Positions 16,759 through 27,462 of a stretch of 32,000 nt of DNA are shown piece after piece. Positions within the stretch are counted from its first letter, which is position 1. Every line of letters starts with the position of its first letter. Below the pieces are notes generated by a model. The model saw nothing but the letters and a program-made list of their open reading frames with translations. It did no database searches and had not been told where the DNA came from. The position numbers and the translations under genes were made by a program. Source of the DNA: Phycisphaera mikurensis NBRC 102666 (GTDB lineage: Bacteria > Planctomycetota > Phycisphaerae > Phycisphaerales > Phycisphaeraceae); contig NC_017080.1 of NCBI RefSeq assembly GCF_000284115.1, positions 630,001-662,000 on the forward strand, given 5' to 3'.

Positions 16759-16887
16759 CCCCACCCCCGCTGCGCAGGTGGCCGACCTGCCACGCGGAGA
16801 CGCCGGCGCTCGCCGTCGCTTGGTGCGTTGACGGGCCCGATCGTCCTCCCGCAGCCGCGGCGCGGCGGCAAGGGGGATCGCGACGGG

Positions 16888-17130
16888 TCACGCGCCGCGC
16901 CCGGTCTTCTCCTGGAGGGCGTCGATCCGCTTGCTGGCCTCGGCTTTGGTCAGCTCCGCGTCGTATCCGTCCTCCTCACCGGCGCCGGCTTCCTCGCTGA
17001 GGGTCTTCAGGTAGGAGGCCTGGGCACCGGTCATCTTCTCGTCGCCCGTGGTCCAGTTGTCCGGGTCTTTCTGCGCGTTGCTGACGGGGTCGCTCTTGGG
17101 GGTCGTGGCGTCGGGGGTTTCGCTGCTCAT
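16888..17130 (-). CDS. DUF3072-like small protein
   Basis: Track ORF 16888..17232 trimmed to ATG 17130 (MSSETPDATTPK…). The conserved core MTGAQASYLKTLSEEAG…LTKAEASKRIDALQ matches my recollection of DUF3072. Confidence 0.7.
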   Translation of the reverse strand: MSSETPDATTPKSDPVSNAQKDPDNWTTGDEKMTGAQASYLKTLSEEAGAGEEDGYDAELTKAEASKRIDALQEKTGRGA

Positions 17131-17324
17131 CGTTTGTCTTCGGTGGAAATCTCGCGGGTACGAACGCAGTCCTCGGCGGATCGGGCGACGGGCTCTCTCG
17201 GCGGCGCTCCGCTCCAAACTTGCACCGAACACTAGGCGCCGCCCCCGGCGCCGTCCACCGGCCCGCAGGAGAGGGGATCGCCTCTAGCCCATTAAGAAGA
17301 TGAGCGACAATCTTCGAAAAAGGC

Positions 17325-17353
17325 TTGACATCGCGTTCCCGCTTTGGCAACAT
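17325..17353 (+). promoter_or_regulatory. sigma70-type promoter candidate of prepilin cassette A
   Basis: TTGACA (17325-17330), a 17-nt spacer ending in TGG (extended -10-like TG), then CAACAT (17348-17353). An AT-rich tract lies upstream and contains the inverted repeat GAAGAT-N8-ATCTTC (17296-17315). Cassette B has the same architecture. Confidence 0.45.
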
Positions 17354-17811
17354 CCAAGGCCCCGCCGCGTTTCGCGTACCGGGCTCCGCTGGCACCCCTT
17401 TCCGGGGGCGTCGAGTCGCCAGAGTTTCTTCAGAATCTCGGATCTCTTCAAGCGATTTTCGAATGACCCCACCGGGCGTTCCGGTGCCGGTCCCGTGAGT
17501 CTCTTGAGGTTCCGACGCCTGGAACAGGCAACCGGCTGCCGGCCGGGATCGATGCGATCTTCCCCCTCCGCGACAGGGCGGGGCGGTCCCGCCGAGATCC
17601 ACCCACCGGTGTCGCCCGCACAACCCGAGGACTTCCCTCGGCACCCACGTGCGACCCTGCCATTGTTCATTCCCATTTCCCGCCGCTCCACCCTCATGGG
17701 TGGCAGCTCTCCGGGATCCGTCACCGGCTTCGGCCGCAGCCGGATGGCCGTTCGCAGACGAGAATCCTCCTTTGGTTCACCTCTTTCTTGACCCCATCTG
17801 GAGTCTTTCTC
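17354..17811 (+). promoter_or_regulatory. long conserved 5' leader of prepilin gene A (candidate structured cis-regulatory RNA)
   Basis: About 450 nt between the candidate promoter and the ATG. It aligns block-wise with 18992-19449 upstream of paralog B, and 1-nt indels rule out coding. Shared hairpins: CACCGG-gcgtt-CCGGTG (17470-17486 and 19105-19121), and a hairpin at the same offset with different sequence (17625-17641 CCGAGG/CCTCGG versus 19260-19277 GGTCGAG/CTCGGCC). Confidence 0.4.
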
Positions 17812-18762
17812 ATGCGTTCCACCCCCAAGAACGACGCCCTCTCCACCCGCACCGGCGCGGGCTTCACGCTGATCGAGCTGCTCGTGGTGATCTCGATCAT
17901 CGCGCTGTTGATCGGCATCCTCCTGCCGGCGCTGGGTGCGGCCCGCCGCACCGCCCGCCAGATGCAGAACAGCACGCAGCTGCGTGGCATCCACCAGGGC
18001 ATGTTCACGTACGCCCAGAGCAACAAGACCGGCGGCCGCGACGGCTACTACCCCGGCCTCAACGCCCAGGGCAAGGTCATCGAGAGCGACCCGAGCACGG
18101 TGATCCCCGCCGCTCAGATCGCTGCCGTGAGCGACGTCGAGGGCTACGGCATCGCCGGTGACGCCATTCCGACCGCCGCGCAGATGAACGGCGGCACGCT
18201 CGGCAACGGCGGCTTCGTCACCCGCGCCTTCGCCGAGCTCGCCTCCGGCGACTTCATCCCCGCCGGCTCCGCCGGGTACTTCATCAACCCCGCCGACACC
18301 AGCAAGACGGAGTTCGTCGCCGGCGGCACCGGCGCCGAAGGCGAGTTCAACTCCACGAAGATCAGTTACACCCCGCTGGACATCTCGGCCACGGCCGACG
18401 GCGGCACCCTGTACGCGGCCGAGTGGAAGGAGACCATCAACACCGCCGCGATGATCCTCGCGGACCGGGCGGTCAACGACGGCGACACGCTGCCCGGCGG
18501 CACCGACGCCTCCAGCGTCTGGACCGACGAGGGCTCCGGCGAGTGGCGTGGCTCGATCGTCCGCGGCGACGGCTCCACCAGCTTCGAGGCGAGCCCGGTG
18601 GCGGCCGAGTCGGGCCTGAAGTTCGGCAAGCGGACCTTCGTCGACGGCACCGTCGACAACCTCTTCGCGGCCCGCGGCGACGCCACCCTCGCCAGCGGCC
18701 AGGTTCCCTCGGACTTCGGCGTCTTCTTCGACGAAGCCGCCACCGATCCCGAGAACTTCTGA
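17812..18762 (+). CDS. prepilin-type N-terminal cleavage/methylation domain protein (pilin/pseudopilin-like), paralog A
   Basis: Track ORF 17788..18762 trimmed to ATG 17812, with GGAG at 17800-17803 (8 nt upstream). MRSTPKNDALSTRTGAG|FTLIELLVVISIIALLIGILLPAL has G-1, F+1 and E+5, followed by QMQNSTQLRGIHQG. No Cys. 316 aa. Confidence 0.85.
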   Translation: MRSTPKNDALSTRTGAGFTLIELLVVISIIALLIGILLPALGAARRTARQMQNSTQLRGIHQGMFTYAQSNKTGGRDGYYPGLNAQGKVIESDPSTVIPAAQIAAVSDVEGYGIAGDAIPTAAQMNGGTLGNGGFVTRAFAELASGDFIPAGSAGYFINPADTSKTEFVAGGTGAEGEFNSTKISYTPLDISATADGGTLYAAEWKETINTAAMILADRAVNDGDTLPGGTDASSVWTDEGSGEWRGSIVRGDGSTSFEASPVAAESGLKFGKRTFVDGTVDNLFAARGDATLASGQVPSDFGVFFDEAATDPENF

Positions 18763-18819
18763 TCGGCCGCATCGGAGCCGGCGACCGCTGCCCTCCGACA
18801 CCCGAGCGCCCATCCTTGA

Positions 18820-18851
18820 GAAGCCGGTCCCCGGGGGCCGGCTTCTTTTTT
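18820..18851 (+). terminator. rho-independent terminator of paralog A
   Basis: GAAGCCGG…CCGGCTTC stem (18820-18845, with extra inner pairs) followed directly by TTTTTT (18846-18851). Confidence 0.8.
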
Positions 18852-18962
18852 GCGCGTCACGCGGACCGGCCGAGGGCGTTCGGCGGCGCTAGCGAGAAGG
18901 AGCGACGGGGCGTGGGAGGTCCCGGGCAGCGGCCGATTCTTATAGGACATTCCGGCGAGTCC

Positions 18963-18991
18963 TTGACAGGCTGCCGCACCCCTGGCAGAAT
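18963..18991 (+). promoter_or_regulatory. sigma70-type promoter candidate of prepilin cassette B
   Basis: TTGACA (18963-18968), a 17-nt spacer ending in TGG, then CAGAAT (18986-18991). An AT-rich patch (gattcttataggacattcc) lies upstream. Confidence 0.45.
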
Positions 18992-19449
18992 GGGGCTTGT
19001 CCCGGCACTCCTCGGGACCCGCTGGCAGGCCTTTTCCGGGGGCTGCCGCGACGGACGAGTCATCCTCGCTCTTCGGCAGCTCCAGCGATCTTGGTTTCCT
19101 GCCCCACCGGGCGTTCCGGTGAGGCCCCGCGAGTCTTCTGAGGTTCATCCGCCTGGTTCAGGGCATCCGGCCGCCGGCCGGGACGTCAGCGATCTTTCCT
19201 CCCCGCGACAGGGCAGGACGGTCCCGCCGGCGTCCGCACACCGGTCACGCCAGCACGCCGGTCGAGTTCTCTCGGCCCACTCGTGCACCCATGCCATAGT
19301 CCATCCCTTGTCTCCCGGACTCCCGCCTCCCGAGGCGGGCCCCGTTCCGGGATCCGTGCCCGGCTTCGGCCGCGGGCGGACGGCCTGCCCCTGACGAGTG
19401 ACCCCCGACGGCTCGCATCTTCCCGTTGACCCCATCTGGAGTCTTTCTC
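18992..19449 (+). promoter_or_regulatory. long conserved 5' leader of prepilin gene B
   Basis: Same length class (about 450 nt) and same conserved blocks as leader A. The last 24 nt before the ATG are identical to A. Confidence 0.4.
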
Positions 19450-20394
19450 ATGCGTTCCACCCCCAAGAACGACGCTCTTTACACCCGCACCGGCGCGGGC
19501 TTCACGCTGATCGAGCTGCTCGTGGTCATCTCGATCATCGCGCTGCTGATCGGCATCCTCCTGCCGGCGCTGGGTGCGGCCCGCCGCACCGCCCGCCAGA
19601 TGCAGAACAGCACGCAGCTGCGTGGCATCCACCAAGGCATGTTCACCTACGCCCAGAGCAACAAGACCGGCGGCCGCGACGGCTACTACCCCGGCCTCGA
19701 CGCCCAGGGCAAGACGATCGTCGTCGCCGACGAGATCCCTGAGGAACAGCTCGCCGCCGACGGCAACGTGCCCGGTTACGCGGCCGCGTCCATCGCCAAC
19801 GTTCTTCCCGCGGAGATGAACACCAACATCACCACCGGTTTCATCACGCGGGCCTTCGCCGAGCTCGCCTCCGGCGACTTCATCCCCGCCGGCTCCGCCG
19901 GGTACTTCATCAACCCCGCGGACACCACCAAGTCCGAATTCGTTGCGGGTGCTGCCGCTCCCGAGGGTGAGTTCAACGCCGCGAAGATCAGCTACACGCC
20001 GCTGGACATCTCCAAGAACACCGGAGGCGGAACAGCCGTCTACCCCTACAGCGGTGAGTGGAAGGAAACCATCAACACGCAGGCCATGATCATGGCCGAC
20101 CGCGCCGTGGGTGAGGGTGATGACCTGATTGCCGCCACGCCCGATGGCTCCAGCGTCTGGACCGACGAGGGCTCCGGCGAGTGGCGTGGCTCGATCGTCC
20201 GCGGCGACGGCTCGACGAGCTTCGAGGCCTCCCCCGTCTTCACCGACGTCGGCCTCAAGTACGGCAAGCGCGTCTTCGTGGACGGCGACGTCGACAACAT
20301 CTTCGCCAGTGCTCTGACCATCACCGCCGGCGAGATCGAGGACGAGTCCGGGATCTTCTACGACGAGGCCGGCACGGCCGCCGAGAACTTCTGA
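19450..20394 (+). CDS. prepilin-type N-terminal cleavage/methylation domain protein (pilin/pseudopilin-like), paralog B
   Basis: Track ORF 19426..20394 trimmed to ATG 19450, with GGAG at 19438-19441. The first 86 aa differ from paralog A at 2 residues. Shared internal blocks include AFAELASGDFIPAGSAGYFINPAD and SSVWTDEGSGEWRGSIVRGDGSTSFEASPV, and both C-termini end in ENF. 314 aa. Confidence 0.85.
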   Translation: MRSTPKNDALYTRTGAGFTLIELLVVISIIALLIGILLPALGAARRTARQMQNSTQLRGIHQGMFTYAQSNKTGGRDGYYPGLDAQGKTIVVADEIPEEQLAADGNVPGYAAASIANVLPAEMNTNITTGFITRAFAELASGDFIPAGSAGYFINPADTTKSEFVAGAAAPEGEFNAAKISYTPLDISKNTGGGTAVYPYSGEWKETINTQAMIMADRAVGEGDDLIAATPDGSSVWTDEGSGEWRGSIVRGDGSTSFEASPVFTDVGLKYGKRVFVDGDVDNIFASALTITAGEIEDESGIFYDEAGTAAENF

Positions 20395-20432
20395 GCGGGC
20401 GGAGGCCGCGGCCTCCTTCCTGATCCATCGAC

Positions 20433-20465
20433 GAAGCCGGCTCGACGAGGGCCGGCTTCTGTTTT
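20433..20465 (+). terminator. rho-independent terminator of paralog B
   Basis: GAAGCCGGC (20433-20441), a 9-nt loop, GCCGGCTTC (20451-20459), then TGTTTT (20460-20465). Confidence 0.7.
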
Positions 20466-20762
20466 GCGCTCCGGGCACACCGATGCGGAGCCAGGCGGAC
20501 CGCCGAGCCGCGACGGGGCTCGATGACGGCCGAAGGCGATGCCGATGCCCGATGCGGCCTGCCGACGCGATTGGACTCCACGCTGATCGAGTCCTACACG
20601 GTTGGAAGCACCCCGCTTCTCGCGGAGTCCACCGGTGGCGACTGTGGCCTCGATTCGGCCGTGTCCGGCGCGGCGCACCGATCCGCCAAGCGGGTCCGCC
20701 CGGCCGCGCCGCTCGCTTCCGGCCGCCCCCGAACCCGCGCCTCGCCGTCGCGGGAGGTCCCC

Positions 20763-20868
20763 GTGTCGCGCATCCGGCGTTTCCGCGACACGTCCCGCCG
20801 ACATGTCGCAGCCCGCGACATCAGCTTCCGGTCATGTCGCAGAAAGGACGAAAAGAGAACATGTCGCG
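20763..20868 (+). promoter_or_regulatory. array of GCGACA(T/C) / (A/G)TGTCGC inverted repeats across the fic 5' region and start codon
   Basis: GTGTCGC (20763-20769) pairs with GCGACAC (20785-20791). CGACATGTCG (20799-20808) is a palindrome. GCGACAT (20815-20821) pairs with ATGTCGC (20834-20840). A further ATGTCGC at 20861-20867 contains the chosen start codon. Confidence 0.35.
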
Positions 20869-21991
20869 GCCGGTGTGGCGGCCCCAGCACCCGTGGAACG
20901 GGTTGCCCGCGCTCCAGAAGAGCGTCGCGGCTTTCGAAACCGTTCCGGTGCTCCGCCGGTGCATCCGCTCCCGGGCGGCGCTCGCGGAGCTGAAGCAGGC
21001 GGCGGAGCGGTTCCCGAACCAGGCGGTGCTCATCGGGACGATCCCGCTGCTGGAGGCCCAGGCGAGCTCCGCGATCGAGAACATCGTCACCACGCAGGAT
21101 CAGCTCTTCCGGCTCCAACGGGCGGAGGACGTGGCCGATCCTGCGGCGAAGGAGGCCCTGCGCTACCGCCACGCGCTCCTGGAGGGCTTCGCCACGCTGC
21201 GGGATCGGCCGCTGACCACCGCCACGGCCGAAGCCGTCTGCGGCCGCATCCGCGGCGTCGAGACGCGCGTGCGGCCGATGGCCGGCACCACGCTCGCAAA
21301 CCCCGCCACCGGCGAGGTCGTCTACACACCGCCCGAGGGGGAGGACCGTCTGCGCAGGATGCTCGCGGCGTGGGAGCGGTACCCCAACGAGCCTTCGGAG
21401 CTGGACCCGCTGATCCGCATGGCGGCGGGGCACCACCAGTTCGAAGCCATCCACCCCTTTCACGACGGCAACGGCCGCACCGGCCGGATCCTCAACAGCC
21501 TCTTCCTGATCCAGGAGGAGCTGCTGACGCTGCCCGTCCTGTACCTCAGCCGGTACATCATCGCCCACAAAGCGGAGTATTACGGGCTTCTGTTGGAGGT
21601 CACGCGCAGCGCCGCGTGGGAGCCTTGGATCCTCTACATGCTCCGCGGCGTGGAGGAGACCGCGATCTGGACGACCGCGAAGATCGGCGGGATCCGCCGC
21701 CTCTTCGACGAGACGGTGGAGCACGTGCGGGCCACCGTCCCCCGCACGTACCGGCACGAGCTGATCGTCCTGCTCTTCGAGCAGCCGTACCTCCGCATCC
21801 AGAACCTCTTCGAGGCCGGGATCGCGCAGCGGCAGGCGGCGTCCCGCCAGCTCCGCCAGCTGGTCGACGCCGGCGTGCTCCGGGAGGTGGAAGCCGGGCG
21901 CGAGAAGCTCTTTTTGAACCCGCGCCTGATGCGTCTGCTCACCAGCGACAGCAACGGCTGGACGCCGTTCCCGGGCCCCGCGGGCAGATGA
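20861..21991 (+). CDS. Fic family protein (class II, N-terminal Fic_N/inhibitory helix, C-terminal winged-helix-like tail)
   Basis: Track ORF 20483..21991 trimmed to ATG 20861 (MSRPVWRPQHPWNGLP), which follows a purine-rich aaaggacgaaaagagaac. An in-frame ATG at 20834 is an alternative. The Fic active-site motif HPFHDGNGRTGR is present. The N-terminal EAQASSAIENIVTT fits the (S/T)xxxE(G/N) auto-inhibition motif. Confidence 0.9.
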   Translation: MSRPVWRPQHPWNGLPALQKSVAAFETVPVLRRCIRSRAALAELKQAAERFPNQAVLIGTIPLLEAQASSAIENIVTTQDQLFRLQRAEDVADPAAKEALRYRHALLEGFATLRDRPLTTATAEAVCGRIRGVETRVRPMAGTTLANPATGEVVYTPPEGEDRLRRMLAAWERYPNEPSELDPLIRMAAGHHQFEAIHPFHDGNGRTGRILNSLFLIQEELLTLPVLYLSRYIIAHKAEYYGLLLEVTRSAAWEPWILYMLRGVEETAIWTTAKIGGIRRLFDETVEHVRATVPRTYRHELIVLLFEQPYLRIQNLFEAGIAQRQAASRQLRQLVDAGVLREVEAGREKLFLNPRLMRLLTSDSNGWTPFPGPAGR

Positions 21992-25589: not shown

Positions 25590-25751
25590 GGCCGCGGGGC
25601 GGCGCGAGCTCGGGCCGCCCGTCGGGGCGAGGGCGGCGGTCCTCGCCGGGCAGCCGCTCCTCGCTGGGCAAGACCGTGCTTCCGGCTCCAGCCCCTCAGG
25701 GATCTCCACCGGCCCCGGGCGGCGCAACCGGAACAATGTTCACCGCTGCCG

Positions 25752-25779
25752 TTAAGTCGCCGCGGCCGCCGCACGATGA
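25752..25779 (+). promoter_or_regulatory. weak sigma28 (FliA)-like promoter candidate upstream of flagellin
   Basis: TTAAGTCG…(15-16 nt)…CACGATGA compared with the consensus TAAAGTTT-N11-GCCGATAA. Only the CGAT core and the TAA(G) match, and the spacing is ambiguous by 1 nt. Confidence 0.25.
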
Positions 25780-25974
25780 CTTGCCTGTTGCCCGACCGGC
25801 GTCTACCGGATCGGCACGAGGATCGGGTTGGGGCTCGTCGCCCCGGCTTCCGTGCCCAAGAGCAACCGGCAGCGGCCACGCGGCTGCCGACATCCGCCCG
25901 GCAGGCCCGCCCCCATGGAGGGAGGCGGGCCGGGGCGTCCCGCCGGATGCCGGTAGAGAAAGCAGAAGCCTTTT

Positions 25975-27462
25975 ATGAGTCGGATCAACACCAACGTCAG
26001 CTCCTTGCTCGCACAGCGATCGCTGGGAGCCACCAACAGAACCCTCAACCAGTCGCTCGAGCGGCTGTCCACGGGCCTCCGCATCAACCGCGGTGCGGAC
26101 GATCCCGCCGGCCTGATCGCCAGCGAGAACCTGCGGAGCCAGAAGGTCTCCATCACCTCGGCCATCGACAACGCCGAGCGTGCCGAGCAGGTCGTCAACA
26201 TCGCCGAGGGCGGCCTCGGCGAGATCAACAGCCTCCTGCTGGAGGTCCAGAGCCTCGTCGGGGCGTCGGCCAACGAGGCCGGCATCTCCGACGCGGAGAA
26301 GGAGGCCAACCAGCTGGAGATCGACTCGATCGTCCAGACGATCGACCGGATCGCCAGCACCACCAGCTTCCAGGGCACCAAGCTGCTCAACGGCAACTAC
26401 GGCTTCCAGACCGAAGCCGTCGACGCCAACGTGGAGAACATCACCGTCAACGCCGCGAAGATCCCCTTCGGCGAGAGCCGCGACGTGGAGGTCCTCGTGA
26501 CCGGCGAGGCCCAGAAGGGCGGCGTCGTGCTCTCCTTCGGCGGCACGGAGGTCAGCGGCACCGGCGGCGAGCTGTTCACCATCGACGTCACCGGCACCGG
26601 CGGCTCCCGCCAGTTCACCTTCGCCAGCGGCACCGGCATCGCCGACATCAGCTCCGCCATCAACACCTTCTCCGACGTCACCGGCGTCACCGCCTCGGCC
26701 AGCGGCACGGCGCTGAACCTCAGCTCCGAGGGCTTCGGCTCCGACGACTTCGTCTCGATCGACGTCGTGAACGCCGCCGGGCTCACCGGCAACGTGGCCC
26801 GCCTCTCCGGTGCCGCCGTCCAGGCCAGCGACCCGGGCACCACCGCCCTCGCCGACGTCACCAGCCCGCTGCGGGACGAGGGCGTCGACGTCAAGGCGAC
26901 GATCAACGGCGTCAACGCGACCGGCAAGGGCCTCGAGGCGAAGATCAGCACCGACTTCCTCGACGTCGCGGTGGAGCTCAAGGAGTCCGGCAACACCGTC
27001 GGCAAGAACGAGGCCGCGACGATCACCGGCGGCGGGGCGACGTTCAACCTCGGGCCCAACGTCGACATCGGCAACCAGGTCTCGATCGGCATCAACAACG
27101 TCGCCGCCCGCAACCTCGGCCGCGTCGGCTCGGACACCCTCGCCAGCCTCTCCTCGGGCAGCGGCCTCAACGTGGTCGACGGCGACCTCACCCAGGCCCA
27201 GAAGGTCGTCAACGCGGCCATCACCGAGGTCGCCGGCCTCCGCGGCCGCCTGGGCGCTTTCCAGAAGAACACCGTCGGCTCGACCATCCGCAGCCTCGGC
27301 GTCGCCCTGGAGAACACCTCCGCCGCCGAGTCGTCGATCCGCGACACCGACTTCGCCGCCGAAACCGCCGCCCTCACCCGGGCCCAGGTCCTCCAGCAGG
27401 CCGCGACCAGCACCTTGAGCCTCGCGAACAGCGCCCCGCAGAGCGTGCTCGGCCTCCTGTAA
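25975..27462 (+). CDS. fliC: flagellin
   Basis: N-terminus MSRINTNVSSLLAQRSLGATNRTLNQSLERLSTGLRINRGADDPAGL. C-terminus …RGRLGAFQKNTVGSTIRSL…IRDTDFAAETAALTRAQVLQQAATSTLSLANSAPQSVLGLL. These are the canonical D0/D1 flagellin termini. 495 aa. Confidence 0.95.
   Translation: MSRINTNVSSLLAQRSLGATNRTLNQSLERLSTGLRINRGADDPAGLIASENLRSQKVSITSAIDNAERAEQVVNIAEGGLGEINSLLLEVQSLVGASANEAGISDAEKEANQLEIDSIVQTIDRIASTTSFQGTKLLNGNYGFQTEAVDANVENITVNAAKIPFGESRDVEVLVTGEAQKGGVVLSFGGTEVSGTGGELFTIDVTGTGGSRQFTFASGTGIADISSAINTFSDVTGVTASASGTALNLSSEGFGSDDFVSIDVVNAAGLTGNVARLSGAAVQASDPGTTALADVTSPLRDEGVDVKATINGVNATGKGLEAKISTDFLDVAVELKESGNTVGKNEAATITGGGATFNLGPNVDIGNQVSIGINNVAARNLGRVGSDTLASLSSGSGLNVVDGDLTQAQKVVNAAITEVAGLRGRLGAFQKNTVGSTIRSLGVALENTSAAESSIRDTDFAAETAALTRAQVLQQAATSTLSLANSAPQSVLGLL

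Follow-up and report, generated by a model that had tools for sequence, protein, structure and literature searches.

Two tandem prepilin-like genes of the planctomycete Phycisphaera mikurensis NBRC 102666 are each preceded by an untranslated leader of about 450 nucleotides (nt), which, judging from its conservation and predicted folding, probably functions as a cis-acting leader RNA. The genes lie in a 32,000-nt stretch of DNA (NC_017080.1, positions 630,001 to 662,000 of the forward strand), which is called the window here and supplies the coordinates unless a related locus is named. Positions 17280–18860 and 18918–20480 of the window hold two copies of one unit, made up of promoter, leader, prepilin-like coding sequence (CDS) and terminator. 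A preliminary description of this DNA had proposed the non-coding leader as a candidate undescribed cis-regulatory RNA, and this proposal was borne out by conservation in other genomes, by the lack of a matching Rfam family and by helices with compensatory changes. The two leaders are:

17360–17811, plus strand: leader A, predicted 5′ untranslated region of about 450 nt
18998–19449, plus strand: leader B, predicted 5′ untranslated region of about 450 nt

Conservation of the two leaders in the window

The preliminary description had presented the leaders as a conserved pair. Across 451 aligned positions their identity was 0.69, and the gaps, 14 columns in all, came in runs of 1–3 nt, whereas alignments of leader A with 40 shuffles of leader B gave an identity of 0.451 ± 0.023 (maximum 0.51). 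All of the exact shared blocks listed earlier were found, including CCCCACCGGGCGTTCCGGTG, TGAGGTTC, GCCGGCCGGGA, CCGCGACAGGGC, CGGTCCCGCCG, TCCGGGATCCGT, CCGGCTTCGGCCGC and the last 24 nt. The similarity starts at the promoter; the 100 nt located 5′ of the −35 box were 46% identical, which equals background.

The leader had also been described as kept about as well as the variable parts of the CDS. Four-fold degenerate sites in those variable parts were far less conserved (0.41 identical, versus 0.69 for the leaders). Along the paralogous CDSs, tracts of 95–100% identity alternate with parts at 53–75%, and four-fold sites were 0.94 identical in the conserved tracts and 0.41 in the variable parts, with 0.51 expected for independent sites. 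At the nucleotide level, the 95–100% tracts comprise 17812–18050 and 19450–19690, which are the first ~240 nt of the two CDSs, and two internal stretches of 60 nt. This pattern is suggestive of conversion between the tandem genes, whose central parts could diverge freely. The paralogues are thus old and partly homogenised, and the leader is far better kept than neutral sites.

Two of the earlier arguments fared less well. The block formed by the final 24 nt of the leader is present, but it is continuous with the 95–100% identical first 240 nt of the CDS; since it runs into this homogenised tract, its identity may reflect gene conversion rather than selection on the leader, and it is not independent evidence. 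The hairpin at 17625–17641 and 19260–19277, whose stems had been read as a hint of compensatory change, keeps the same CGAG/CTCG core in both copies, with the differences confined to its extensions. Because of this unchanged core, and because it is located in the part of the leader that is least conserved in other genomes, it is weak evidence.

Homologous leaders in other genomes

Homologous loci were reached through the closest protein homologues, which were traced to their metagenome contigs. This collection of upstream regions, which the preliminary description had proposed, recovered the leader upstream of related prepilin-like genes on other contigs. The close group consists of six leaders, namely A, B and those of loci L003, L004, L007 and L019. 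With leader B as query, nhmmer returned E-values of 1.9e-26 for L004, 2.6e-22 for L007 and 5.2e-8 for L003. A profile search added L019 (9.7e-48) and 83 nt of leader at the L005 contig, which is all that this contig provides. Leaders of the close group were always positioned 5′ of prepilin homologues, and those proteins were only 57–62% identical.

Loci L004 and L007 share synteny with the window (SDR, DUF3072 and prepilin genes, and fic in L007). The L003 leader stands in a different gene context and leader B is preceded by the other paralogue, which indicates that the leader travels with the prepilin gene. Across the loci, the gene 5′ of the element and its orientation vary, while the prepilin-like gene 3′ of it is constant. 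When every intergenic segment of the window locus was searched against L004 and L007, only the two leaders matched (E = 1e-11 to 2e-21), with the exception of a 48-nt piece upstream of fic (about 20760–20830, E = 0.014) that is similar to the syntenic L007. Between L004 and L007 the leader was 0.83 identical and four-fold sites were 0.65 identical. The non-coding leader sequence is thus under purifying selection.

The element was not found at the other prepilin paralogues (L001, L002, L006 and L021), and neither the rest of the window nor about 100 kb of related loci contained further copies. A scan of the genome collection with the protein yielded two distant paralogues only, both without the leader. 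A metagenome scan with the pattern of block f, a conserved segment mapped below, gave 10 loci that match the pattern alone; these were discarded as chance hits. The L006 paralogue has a 1.8-kb upstream region without the leader, and at about 1900–2400 of that locus two direct copies of a ~170-nt unit (GCGTGCCGGTCTTCACGCAAC...GGAACCC) were seen by eye.

Architecture and predicted structure

The leader opens with about 110 nt of variable sequence and continues with hairpin b, the two arms of a long-range duplex around a central domain (about 180 nt in the window copies), and a hairpin that holds the Shine–Dalgarno (SD) sequence. Its elements in leaders A and B are:

17469–17489, plus strand: hairpin b of leader A, CACCGG-GCGUU-CCGGUG, with a conserved RYGKU loop
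17492–17546, plus strand: duplex 5′ arm of leader A, GAGUC..GAGGUUC, with the local hairpin GCCUG-GAA-CAGGC and CCGGCUGCCGGCC
17556–17588, plus strand: hairpin e (helix 7) of leader A, GAUCU-UCCCCCUCC-GCGACA-GGGCGGGG-CGGUC
17596–17700, plus strand: C-rich, G-poor tract of leader A; its 80-nt minimum has 39 C and 13 G and starts 196 nt before the ATG
17654–17684, plus strand: block f of leader A, consensus CCAUGCCAUUGUUCAUYCCUUGUCU, predicted to be mostly single-stranded
17711–17727, plus strand: hairpin g (helix 11) of leader A, CCGG-GAUCCGUCA-CCGG, 5 pairs, 90% paired
17729–17783, plus strand: duplex 3′ arm of leader A, containing the local CGGC-UUCG-GCCG hairpin of the preliminary description
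17788–17805, plus strand: SD hairpin (helix 12) of leader A, UUGACCCC-AUCU-GGAGUC, holding the Shine–Dalgarno GGAG
19104–19123, plus strand: hairpin b of leader B
19126–19181, plus strand: duplex 5′ arm of leader B
19191–19223, plus strand: hairpin e of leader B
19288–19318, plus strand: block f of leader B
19347–19363, plus strand: hairpin g of leader B
19365–19419, plus strand: duplex 3′ arm of leader B
19426–19443, plus strand: SD hairpin of leader B

The long-range duplex of about 40 base pairs (bp) and the C-rich tract had not been part of the preliminary description.

The consensus fold of the six close leaders, calculated with RNAalifold, had 77 pairs with 90.9% of cells paired, versus 36–53% when the partners were slid. 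It contained 18 compensatory pairs, compared with 2–7 in the slid controls and a mean of 8.5 in shuffles, none of which (0/500) reached 18. When columns were shuffled with conservation and gap patterns kept, the consensus energy had a z-score of −2.8, and the 18 compensatory pairs stood against a mean of 10. The adjacent CDS alignment gave z = +1.45 and +0.39 in the same shuffle test, so the null is not lenient. Single leader sequences folded 1–5 standard deviations better than dinucleotide shuffles, with similar z-scores on both strands.

Hairpin b could be aligned in ten sequences of this group and of a second, more distant group described below. It had 9 pairs with 92.5% paired, 5 of the pairs (13 cells) were compensatory, and the loop-closing pair alternated between G-U and A-U. 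Hairpin e had 8 pairs, 95.8% paired and 4 compensatory.

The long-range duplex, with arms of 55 nt, formed 35–41 pairs at −45 to −68 kcal/mol in 6/6 close copies. Relative to shuffled arms its z-scores were −2.5 to −6.7, and the RNAduplex energy in leader A was −56.8 kcal/mol (z = −4.8). It was present in five of the six unconstrained minimum free energy (MFE) folds, and was recovered independently as inverted repeats and as a minus-strand match of the 5′-domain model on the 3′ arm. Over 32 pairs of the duplex, 90% of cells were paired, versus 27–45% in slid controls, and 8 pairs were compensatory, versus 1–4 in those controls, with 0/500 shuffles reaching 8. The arms also fold locally, the 5′ arm into hairpins d and d2 and the 3′ arm into the CGGC-UUCG-GCCG hairpin, which would give the leader alternative conformations. 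The 3′ arm ends about 28 nt 5′ of the ATG.

In all six close copies, the most skewed 80-nt segment started at −196 to −210 nt from the ATG, with a skew of −0.35 to −0.56. As background, 1% of 80-nt segments in the whole window, on either strand, fell below a skew of −0.35; in the leaders of the distant group, 20–42% did so. The C-rich tract was largely unpaired in the consensus fold. Inside it lies block f (about 25 nt, near-invariant), the best-conserved primary sequence in the leader. The central domain as a whole is conserved in blocks, with a length that varies by tens of nucleotides and with poorly conserved stretches, and loop and junction sequences are kept while stems vary.

The UUGACCCC block that immediately follows the 3′ arm pairs with the SD (GAC/GUC plus CC/GG), and the unpaired probability of the SD was about 0.2. 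An RNAduplex scan for a conserved anti-SD partner elsewhere in the leader found none that was consistent besides this adjacent UUGACCCC. Control of SD access by the duplex was rejected, as it had no effect in the thermodynamic model, and CsrA-type repeated GGA sites were rejected because GGA motifs were not consistently conserved in the alignment.

Strand

Hairpin b contained 9 G-U cells and, by reading of the alignment, no A-C cells among the unpaired ones. Among pairs predicted on both strands there were 17 G-U cells, versus 8 A-C cells. In every locus the element directly adjoins the SD of a prepilin-like gene. Promoter, constant position relative to the SD and G-U pairs thus favour the plus strand as the probable sense of the RNA. 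The CDS control showed no minus-strand-type folding signal on either strand.

A distant group of leaders

Five more homologues (L008, L020, L022, L023 and L024), with proteins 51–55% identical, had upstream gaps of 560–860 nt that were conserved among themselves, with predicted leaders of 560–750 nt. Their landmarks begin with TTGACA-N17-GATACT or GATAAT, followed by UUUCCUGCC and a hairpin with the same loop as hairpin b (GACGGG-RCGUU-CCCGUC). Next come CGCG...GGAGGU, a GCCC...GGGC hairpin and AAC, and finally a pyrimidine-rich block CCAUGUCCUAUUCCAUCC, UUGCCCC and the SD. The landmarks of both groups occur in the same order. A covariance model trained on the close group alone (91 positions) had its best outside matches at the expected places, namely L008 2386–2479 (E = 8e-4), L023 89–134 (E = 0.0075) and L008 2340–2385 (E = 0.046). 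The five leaders are probable distant relatives of the close group.

The distant group has a shorter long-range helix, GGCGGUNN/NNACCGCC, of 5–8 bp between the 3′ side of hairpin b and UUGCCCC; it reads CG/CG in L020 versus UC/GA in L022. An extended long-range duplex was rejected for this group, as it was not significant (z = −0.6 to −2.9) and the short helix alone was consistent. The gene 5′ of the leader in L024 (2–1639) encodes an RtcR-like sigma-54 activator with RtcR and Sigma54_activat domains, probably an incidental neighbour.

Predicted promoters and transcription units, and coding potential

The predicted promoters of the two units are:

17325–17353, plus strand: promoter A, TTGACA at 17325–17330, 17-nt spacer and CAACAT at 17348–17353, with a predicted start near 17360
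18963–18991, plus strand: promoter B, TTGACA-N17-CAGAAT, 10/12 consensus positions, the sole promoter-like site detected in 16800–20700

Promoter A was just under the scan threshold; it aligns with the promoters of leader B, L004 and L007 (TTGACA-N17-TAGAAT, TAGCAT or CAGAAT). Across the leaders the promoter follows a near-consensus TTGACA-N17-nAnnAT, with TTGACT-N17-GAGCAT in L003 and TTGACA-N17-GATAAT in L022 and L024. The window, L004, L007 and L008 each had one plus-strand sigma-70-like site per locus, which matched 10–11 of 12 positions, with 0.1–0.2 sites expected by chance. This site was always at the 5′ edge of the conserved region, in the window about 485 nt upstream of the gene. A second, weaker site on the minus strand of L004 faces DUF3072. 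No terminator-like sites were found within the leaders of these four loci, and terminators come after the CDS. The predicted untranslated leaders are about 450 nt long in the window and 500–570 nt in L004, L007 and L003.

The promoters at L008 2217–2245 and L024 ~1735–1763 share both hexamers and most of the 17-nt spacer (GAACGrGCTTCACTC), which hints at a protein-binding site overlapping the promoter. Two other promoter candidates were rejected. A sigma-54 promoter at the TGGCA block lacks the −12 element, and by reading of the sequence the block is not conserved in L004 or L007; a second promoter at TTGACCCC has no −10 box at usable spacing.

No conserved open reading frame was found in the leaders. 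Block f contains the only ATG that occurs in a conserved block; leader A has CTG in its place, L023 has ACG, and in leader B a stop follows after a single codon. The earlier argument that indels exclude coding was upheld, as indels of 1–2 nt are scattered in every pairwise comparison. Loss or early termination of the block f ATG and these indels rule out a coding function or an upstream open reading frame.

Genomic setting

The genes and terminators of the two units are:

17812–18762, plus strand: prepilin-like gene A, 316 amino acids, class III signal peptide (N_methyl) followed by a domain without family match
18820–18851, plus strand: terminator A, GAAGCCGG...CCGGCUUC followed by a T run, read from the sequence and aligning with terminator B
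19450–20394, plus strand: prepilin-like gene B, 314 amino acids
20433–20466, plus strand: terminator B, from the terminator scan

In both CDSs the prokaryotic N-terminal methylation motif (Pfam N_methyl) is the sole domain. Weak matches of both proteins to GspG and pilins were confined to the first ~70 residues, and beyond this N-terminal region no matching family and no matching solved structure were found. The neighbouring genes are of the housekeeping type (dnaA, L21, GT2 glycosyltransferase, SDR, DUF3072, fic, ispG, accA, flagellin, signal recognition particle RNA, dnaX and lpxA/C).

Three further observations concern these neighbours. The bacterial small signal recognition particle RNA (RF00169; 27750–27849, plus strand; 46.3 bits versus a gathering score of 40) was the sole Rfam family in the window. 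Just 5′ of the Fic-family gene, 20762–20870 contains five or six copies of CATGTCGC(A/G)G or its complement, the last of which overlaps the ATG of that gene at 20861; the cluster looks like an operator array. The flagellin gene (25975–27462, plus strand) has a 385-nt upstream gap (25590–25974), in which a sigma-28-like TTAAGT...CACGATGA was seen by eye near 25752–25780 and would leave a flagellin leader of about 190 nt. With a flagellin gene and this candidate site, the organism is probably flagellated.

Interpretation

We propose that each gene forms its own transcription unit, in which a near-consensus promoter of the sigma-70 type is followed by about 450 nt of untranslated leader, by the CDS and by an intrinsic terminator, and that the leader would set the amount of full-length, translatable mRNA. 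The default fate of the transcript would be premature termination or decay inside the leader, with Rho loading on the C-rich, G-poor tract; this is proposed because an untranslated stretch of such composition and of at least 80 nt is a loading substrate for Rho. Folding of the long-range duplex, together with a trans-acting factor that reads the hairpin b loop or block f, would decide whether the polymerase arrives at the gene. Taken as a whole, this account of separate transcription units, a new structured cis-acting leader and gated read-through seems to us about evenly poised between right and wrong, and gating by Rho specifically is a tentative and rather doubtful part of it.

A number of points weigh against this account. 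Transcription of the leader from the distal promoter on the plus strand is something we infer from sequence, and the same is true of the role of Rho and of any trans-acting factor. Some C-richness is likewise seen on the plus strand of the adjacent CDS, and, the prepilin gene being monocistronic, attenuation is one of several possible uses of the leader. In silico, blocking either duplex arm left SD accessibility unchanged, and no link between duplex and translation was evident. The consensus fold was better on the minus strand (z = −7.4 and 27 compensatory pairs, versus −2.8 and 18 on the plus strand), and the duplex is equally stable on either strand; the stronger minus-strand fold may be an effect of the G-rich strand or a real antisense RNA. 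The covariation statistics are low-powered, with six close and five distant sequences of which several are closely related. Similarity between distant and close leaders was not significant by nhmmer or Smith–Waterman, and their homology rests on the covariance-model match and on short blocks in the same order.

Unlikely overall, the main rival to gated read-through is an RNA-processing or stability element; the readings that follow it here are less likely still, in descending order. The duplex would be an RNase III-type cleavage site, and cleavage would leave a short-leader mRNA of altered stability or translation and might also release the ~180-nt central domain as a separate RNA. The near-continuous, imperfect duplex of 35–41 pairs in every close copy and in five of the six MFE folds, its compensatory changes and the position of its 3′ arm, about 28 nt before the ATG, all agree with such a role, and the distant group keeps the helix GGCGGUNN/NNACCGCC at the same position. 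However, this helix is short and is the only part conserved there, the local hairpins of the arms compete with the duplex, and the near-invariant single-stranded block f and the conserved hairpin b loop would be left unexplained. We give a small chance to a translational sensor: a small molecule, a small RNA or a protein (feedback from pilin assembly, for example) would bind to the central domain, or this domain would sense temperature, and access to the SD hairpin would change. As in aptamers, loops and junctions are kept while stems vary; the SD, within a small conserved hairpin, is about 80% paired; and pilin genes elsewhere are reported to be under riboswitch control, as with c-di-GMP riboswitches and pilA1 of Clostridioides difficile (PMC6200980, PMC6366702). 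Against a sensor stand the lack of a match to a known aptamer in Rfam, the variation of the central domain by tens of nucleotides with poorly conserved stretches, and the SD itself, which has no conserved partner besides the adjacent UUGACCCC and whose accessibility is independent of the duplex in silico.

It would be a surprise if the functional RNA were not an mRNA leader at all, but a separate small RNA that starts at the distal promoter, or an antisense RNA read from the minus strand. The stronger minus-strand consensus fold and the similar single-sequence z-scores on both strands speak for this reading, yet the minus strand had no promoter-like site within or close to the leaders, and leader and gene were not separated by a terminator. 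Moreover, the G-U pairs of hairpin b would read as A-C mismatches in a minus-strand RNA, pairs common to both predictions favour the plus strand (17 versus 8), and it is the downstream prepilin gene that is constant, whereas the upstream gene and its orientation vary. The symmetry of the duplex between strands, with inverted-repeat arms of ~55 nt around a ~180-bp segment between promoter and pilin-type gene, also recalls the switches of fimbrial and cell-wall-protein genes; conservation at the DNA level, as an invertible phase-variation switch, the remains of a miniature transposable element or transcription factor sites, is nevertheless very improbable. The arms are imperfect, bulged and different between copies yet stay complementary, which points to selection on pairing and not on a recombination core, and stems covary while asymmetric loops stay constant. 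The central segment had the same orientation in 11/11 leaders (assemblies show the majority orientation only), no recombinase domain was found among the scanned likely genes of the 32-kb window, and copies stood only before the two paralogues, while the rest of the window and the ~100 kb of related loci had none. Least credible is a relic of tandem duplication without function, made patchy by gene conversion. The CDSs do carry conversion-like tracts, one of them continuous with the last 24 nt of the leader, but the same blocks are kept in organisms whose proteins are just 57–62% identical, while all other intergenic DNA of those loci has diverged beyond detection, which already contradicts this reading.

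Planctomycetota carry dozens to hundreds of prepilin-like genes whose role is unknown, and we know of almost nothing on post-transcriptional control in this phylum. A selected leader of 450–750 nt with a defined architecture and no RNA family offers an entry point to it, and the hairpin b loop, the duplex arms, block f and the C-rich tract are elements that can be mutated in experiments. The prepilin subfamily itself may be tightly regulated and is probably highly expressed. We also entertain, with little confidence, a new class of large structured RNA, 300–650 nt long, that is closed by a long-range duplex and dedicated to a Phycisphaerae-specific pilin-like surface protein; it would act as a sensor whose partner, a ligand or a protein, sets it apart from known riboswitches, or as a precursor that releases the enclosed domain as a stable non-coding RNA. 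If the enclosed domain binds a ligand or protein, a new class of large cis-regulatory RNA would be added; if the leader is a stability or processing element only, it would be an ordinary but well-documented case in an understudied phylum.

Comparison with known RNA families and systems

The covariance-model search of Rfam proposed in the preliminary description brought no family to its gathering score. With Rfam 15 at gathering thresholds, no leader in the window or in 10 related loci was matched, and the models that the leaders failed to reach include c-di-GMP-I/II, cyclic-dinucleotide and other riboswitch classes. At E ≤ 10 over 17200–19500, the only matches inside the leaders were two weak ones on the minus strand, to RF01074 (18.1 bits versus 40) and RF00166 (14.6 versus 44), and at E ≤ 5 the L008 leader had none. 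Nor did we find a description of this leader element in the literature. As to a riboswitch expression platform, the leader showed no internal terminator, no duplex-dependent SD pairing and no conserved alternative SD partner.

Rho loads where at least 80 nt of untranslated RNA are rich in C and poor in G, and it controls long leaders such as those of mgtA, corA, rho and rpoS in enterobacteria. In all six close copies the tract has such a composition, with about 80 nt of C-rich, G-poor sequence and little structure. Rho-dependent premature termination in long 5′ leaders is the subject of reviews and surveys (PMC6582626, PMC7815308). Like Rho-attenuated leaders, the prepilin leader has a C-rich, G-poor stretch, potential gating structures and no internal intrinsic terminator, and it is predicted to comprise several hundred untranslated nucleotides. 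It is longer than typical Rho loading regions, far better conserved in primary sequence and closed by a 40-bp duplex, and it shares no sequence or structure homology with Rho-attenuated leaders.

RNase III needs a duplex of roughly 20 bp, and it processes long-range duplexes in the phage lambda N leader, the pnp leader and the stems that flank 16S and 23S rRNA. The predicted intramolecular duplex of the prepilin leader, with 35–41 pairs and 8 compensatory ones, extends beyond that length. As in these leaders and precursors, distant segments pair as an extended, imperfect duplex around a large domain and near the ribosome-binding site. The arms of the prepilin leader, however, also fold locally, and its conserved single-stranded blocks in the loop are atypical of RNase III substrates.

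In Clostridioides difficile, c-di-GMP riboswitches are reported upstream of the type IV pilin gene pilA1 (PMC6200980, PMC6366702). The likeness lies in a structured leader RNA before a pilin-type gene. The prepilin leader differs in having no Rfam match, in being several times larger and in lacking an expression platform of the terminator type.

Abundant surface-protein mRNAs may carry stabilising or protein-bound 5′ untranslated regions, as in ompA, S-layer genes and the flagellin hag leader with CsrA. These systems share with the prepilin leader a monocistronic gene for a secreted, structural-type protein, a strong promoter and terminator, and a long structured leader. Their leaders, however, are of 100–200 nt and rely mainly on a 5′ stem-loop or GGA motifs, whereas the conserved parts of the prepilin leader are far from its 5′ end. 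Invertible switches precede fimbrial and surface-protein genes, such as fimS of E. coli and cwpV of C. difficile, and have in common with the prepilin leader inverted repeats around a segment of a few hundred bp between promoter and pilin-type gene. In contrast to these switches, the repeats of the prepilin leader are long, imperfect and covarying, with a single orientation in 11/11 leaders and no recombinase nearby.

In kind, the prepilin leader thus resembles Rho-attenuated, RNase III-processed and pilin-riboswitch leaders, without being a member of any of their families. We would class it as a new family of structured cis-acting mRNA leaders, a class already known, in which its size and its long closing duplex are unusual.

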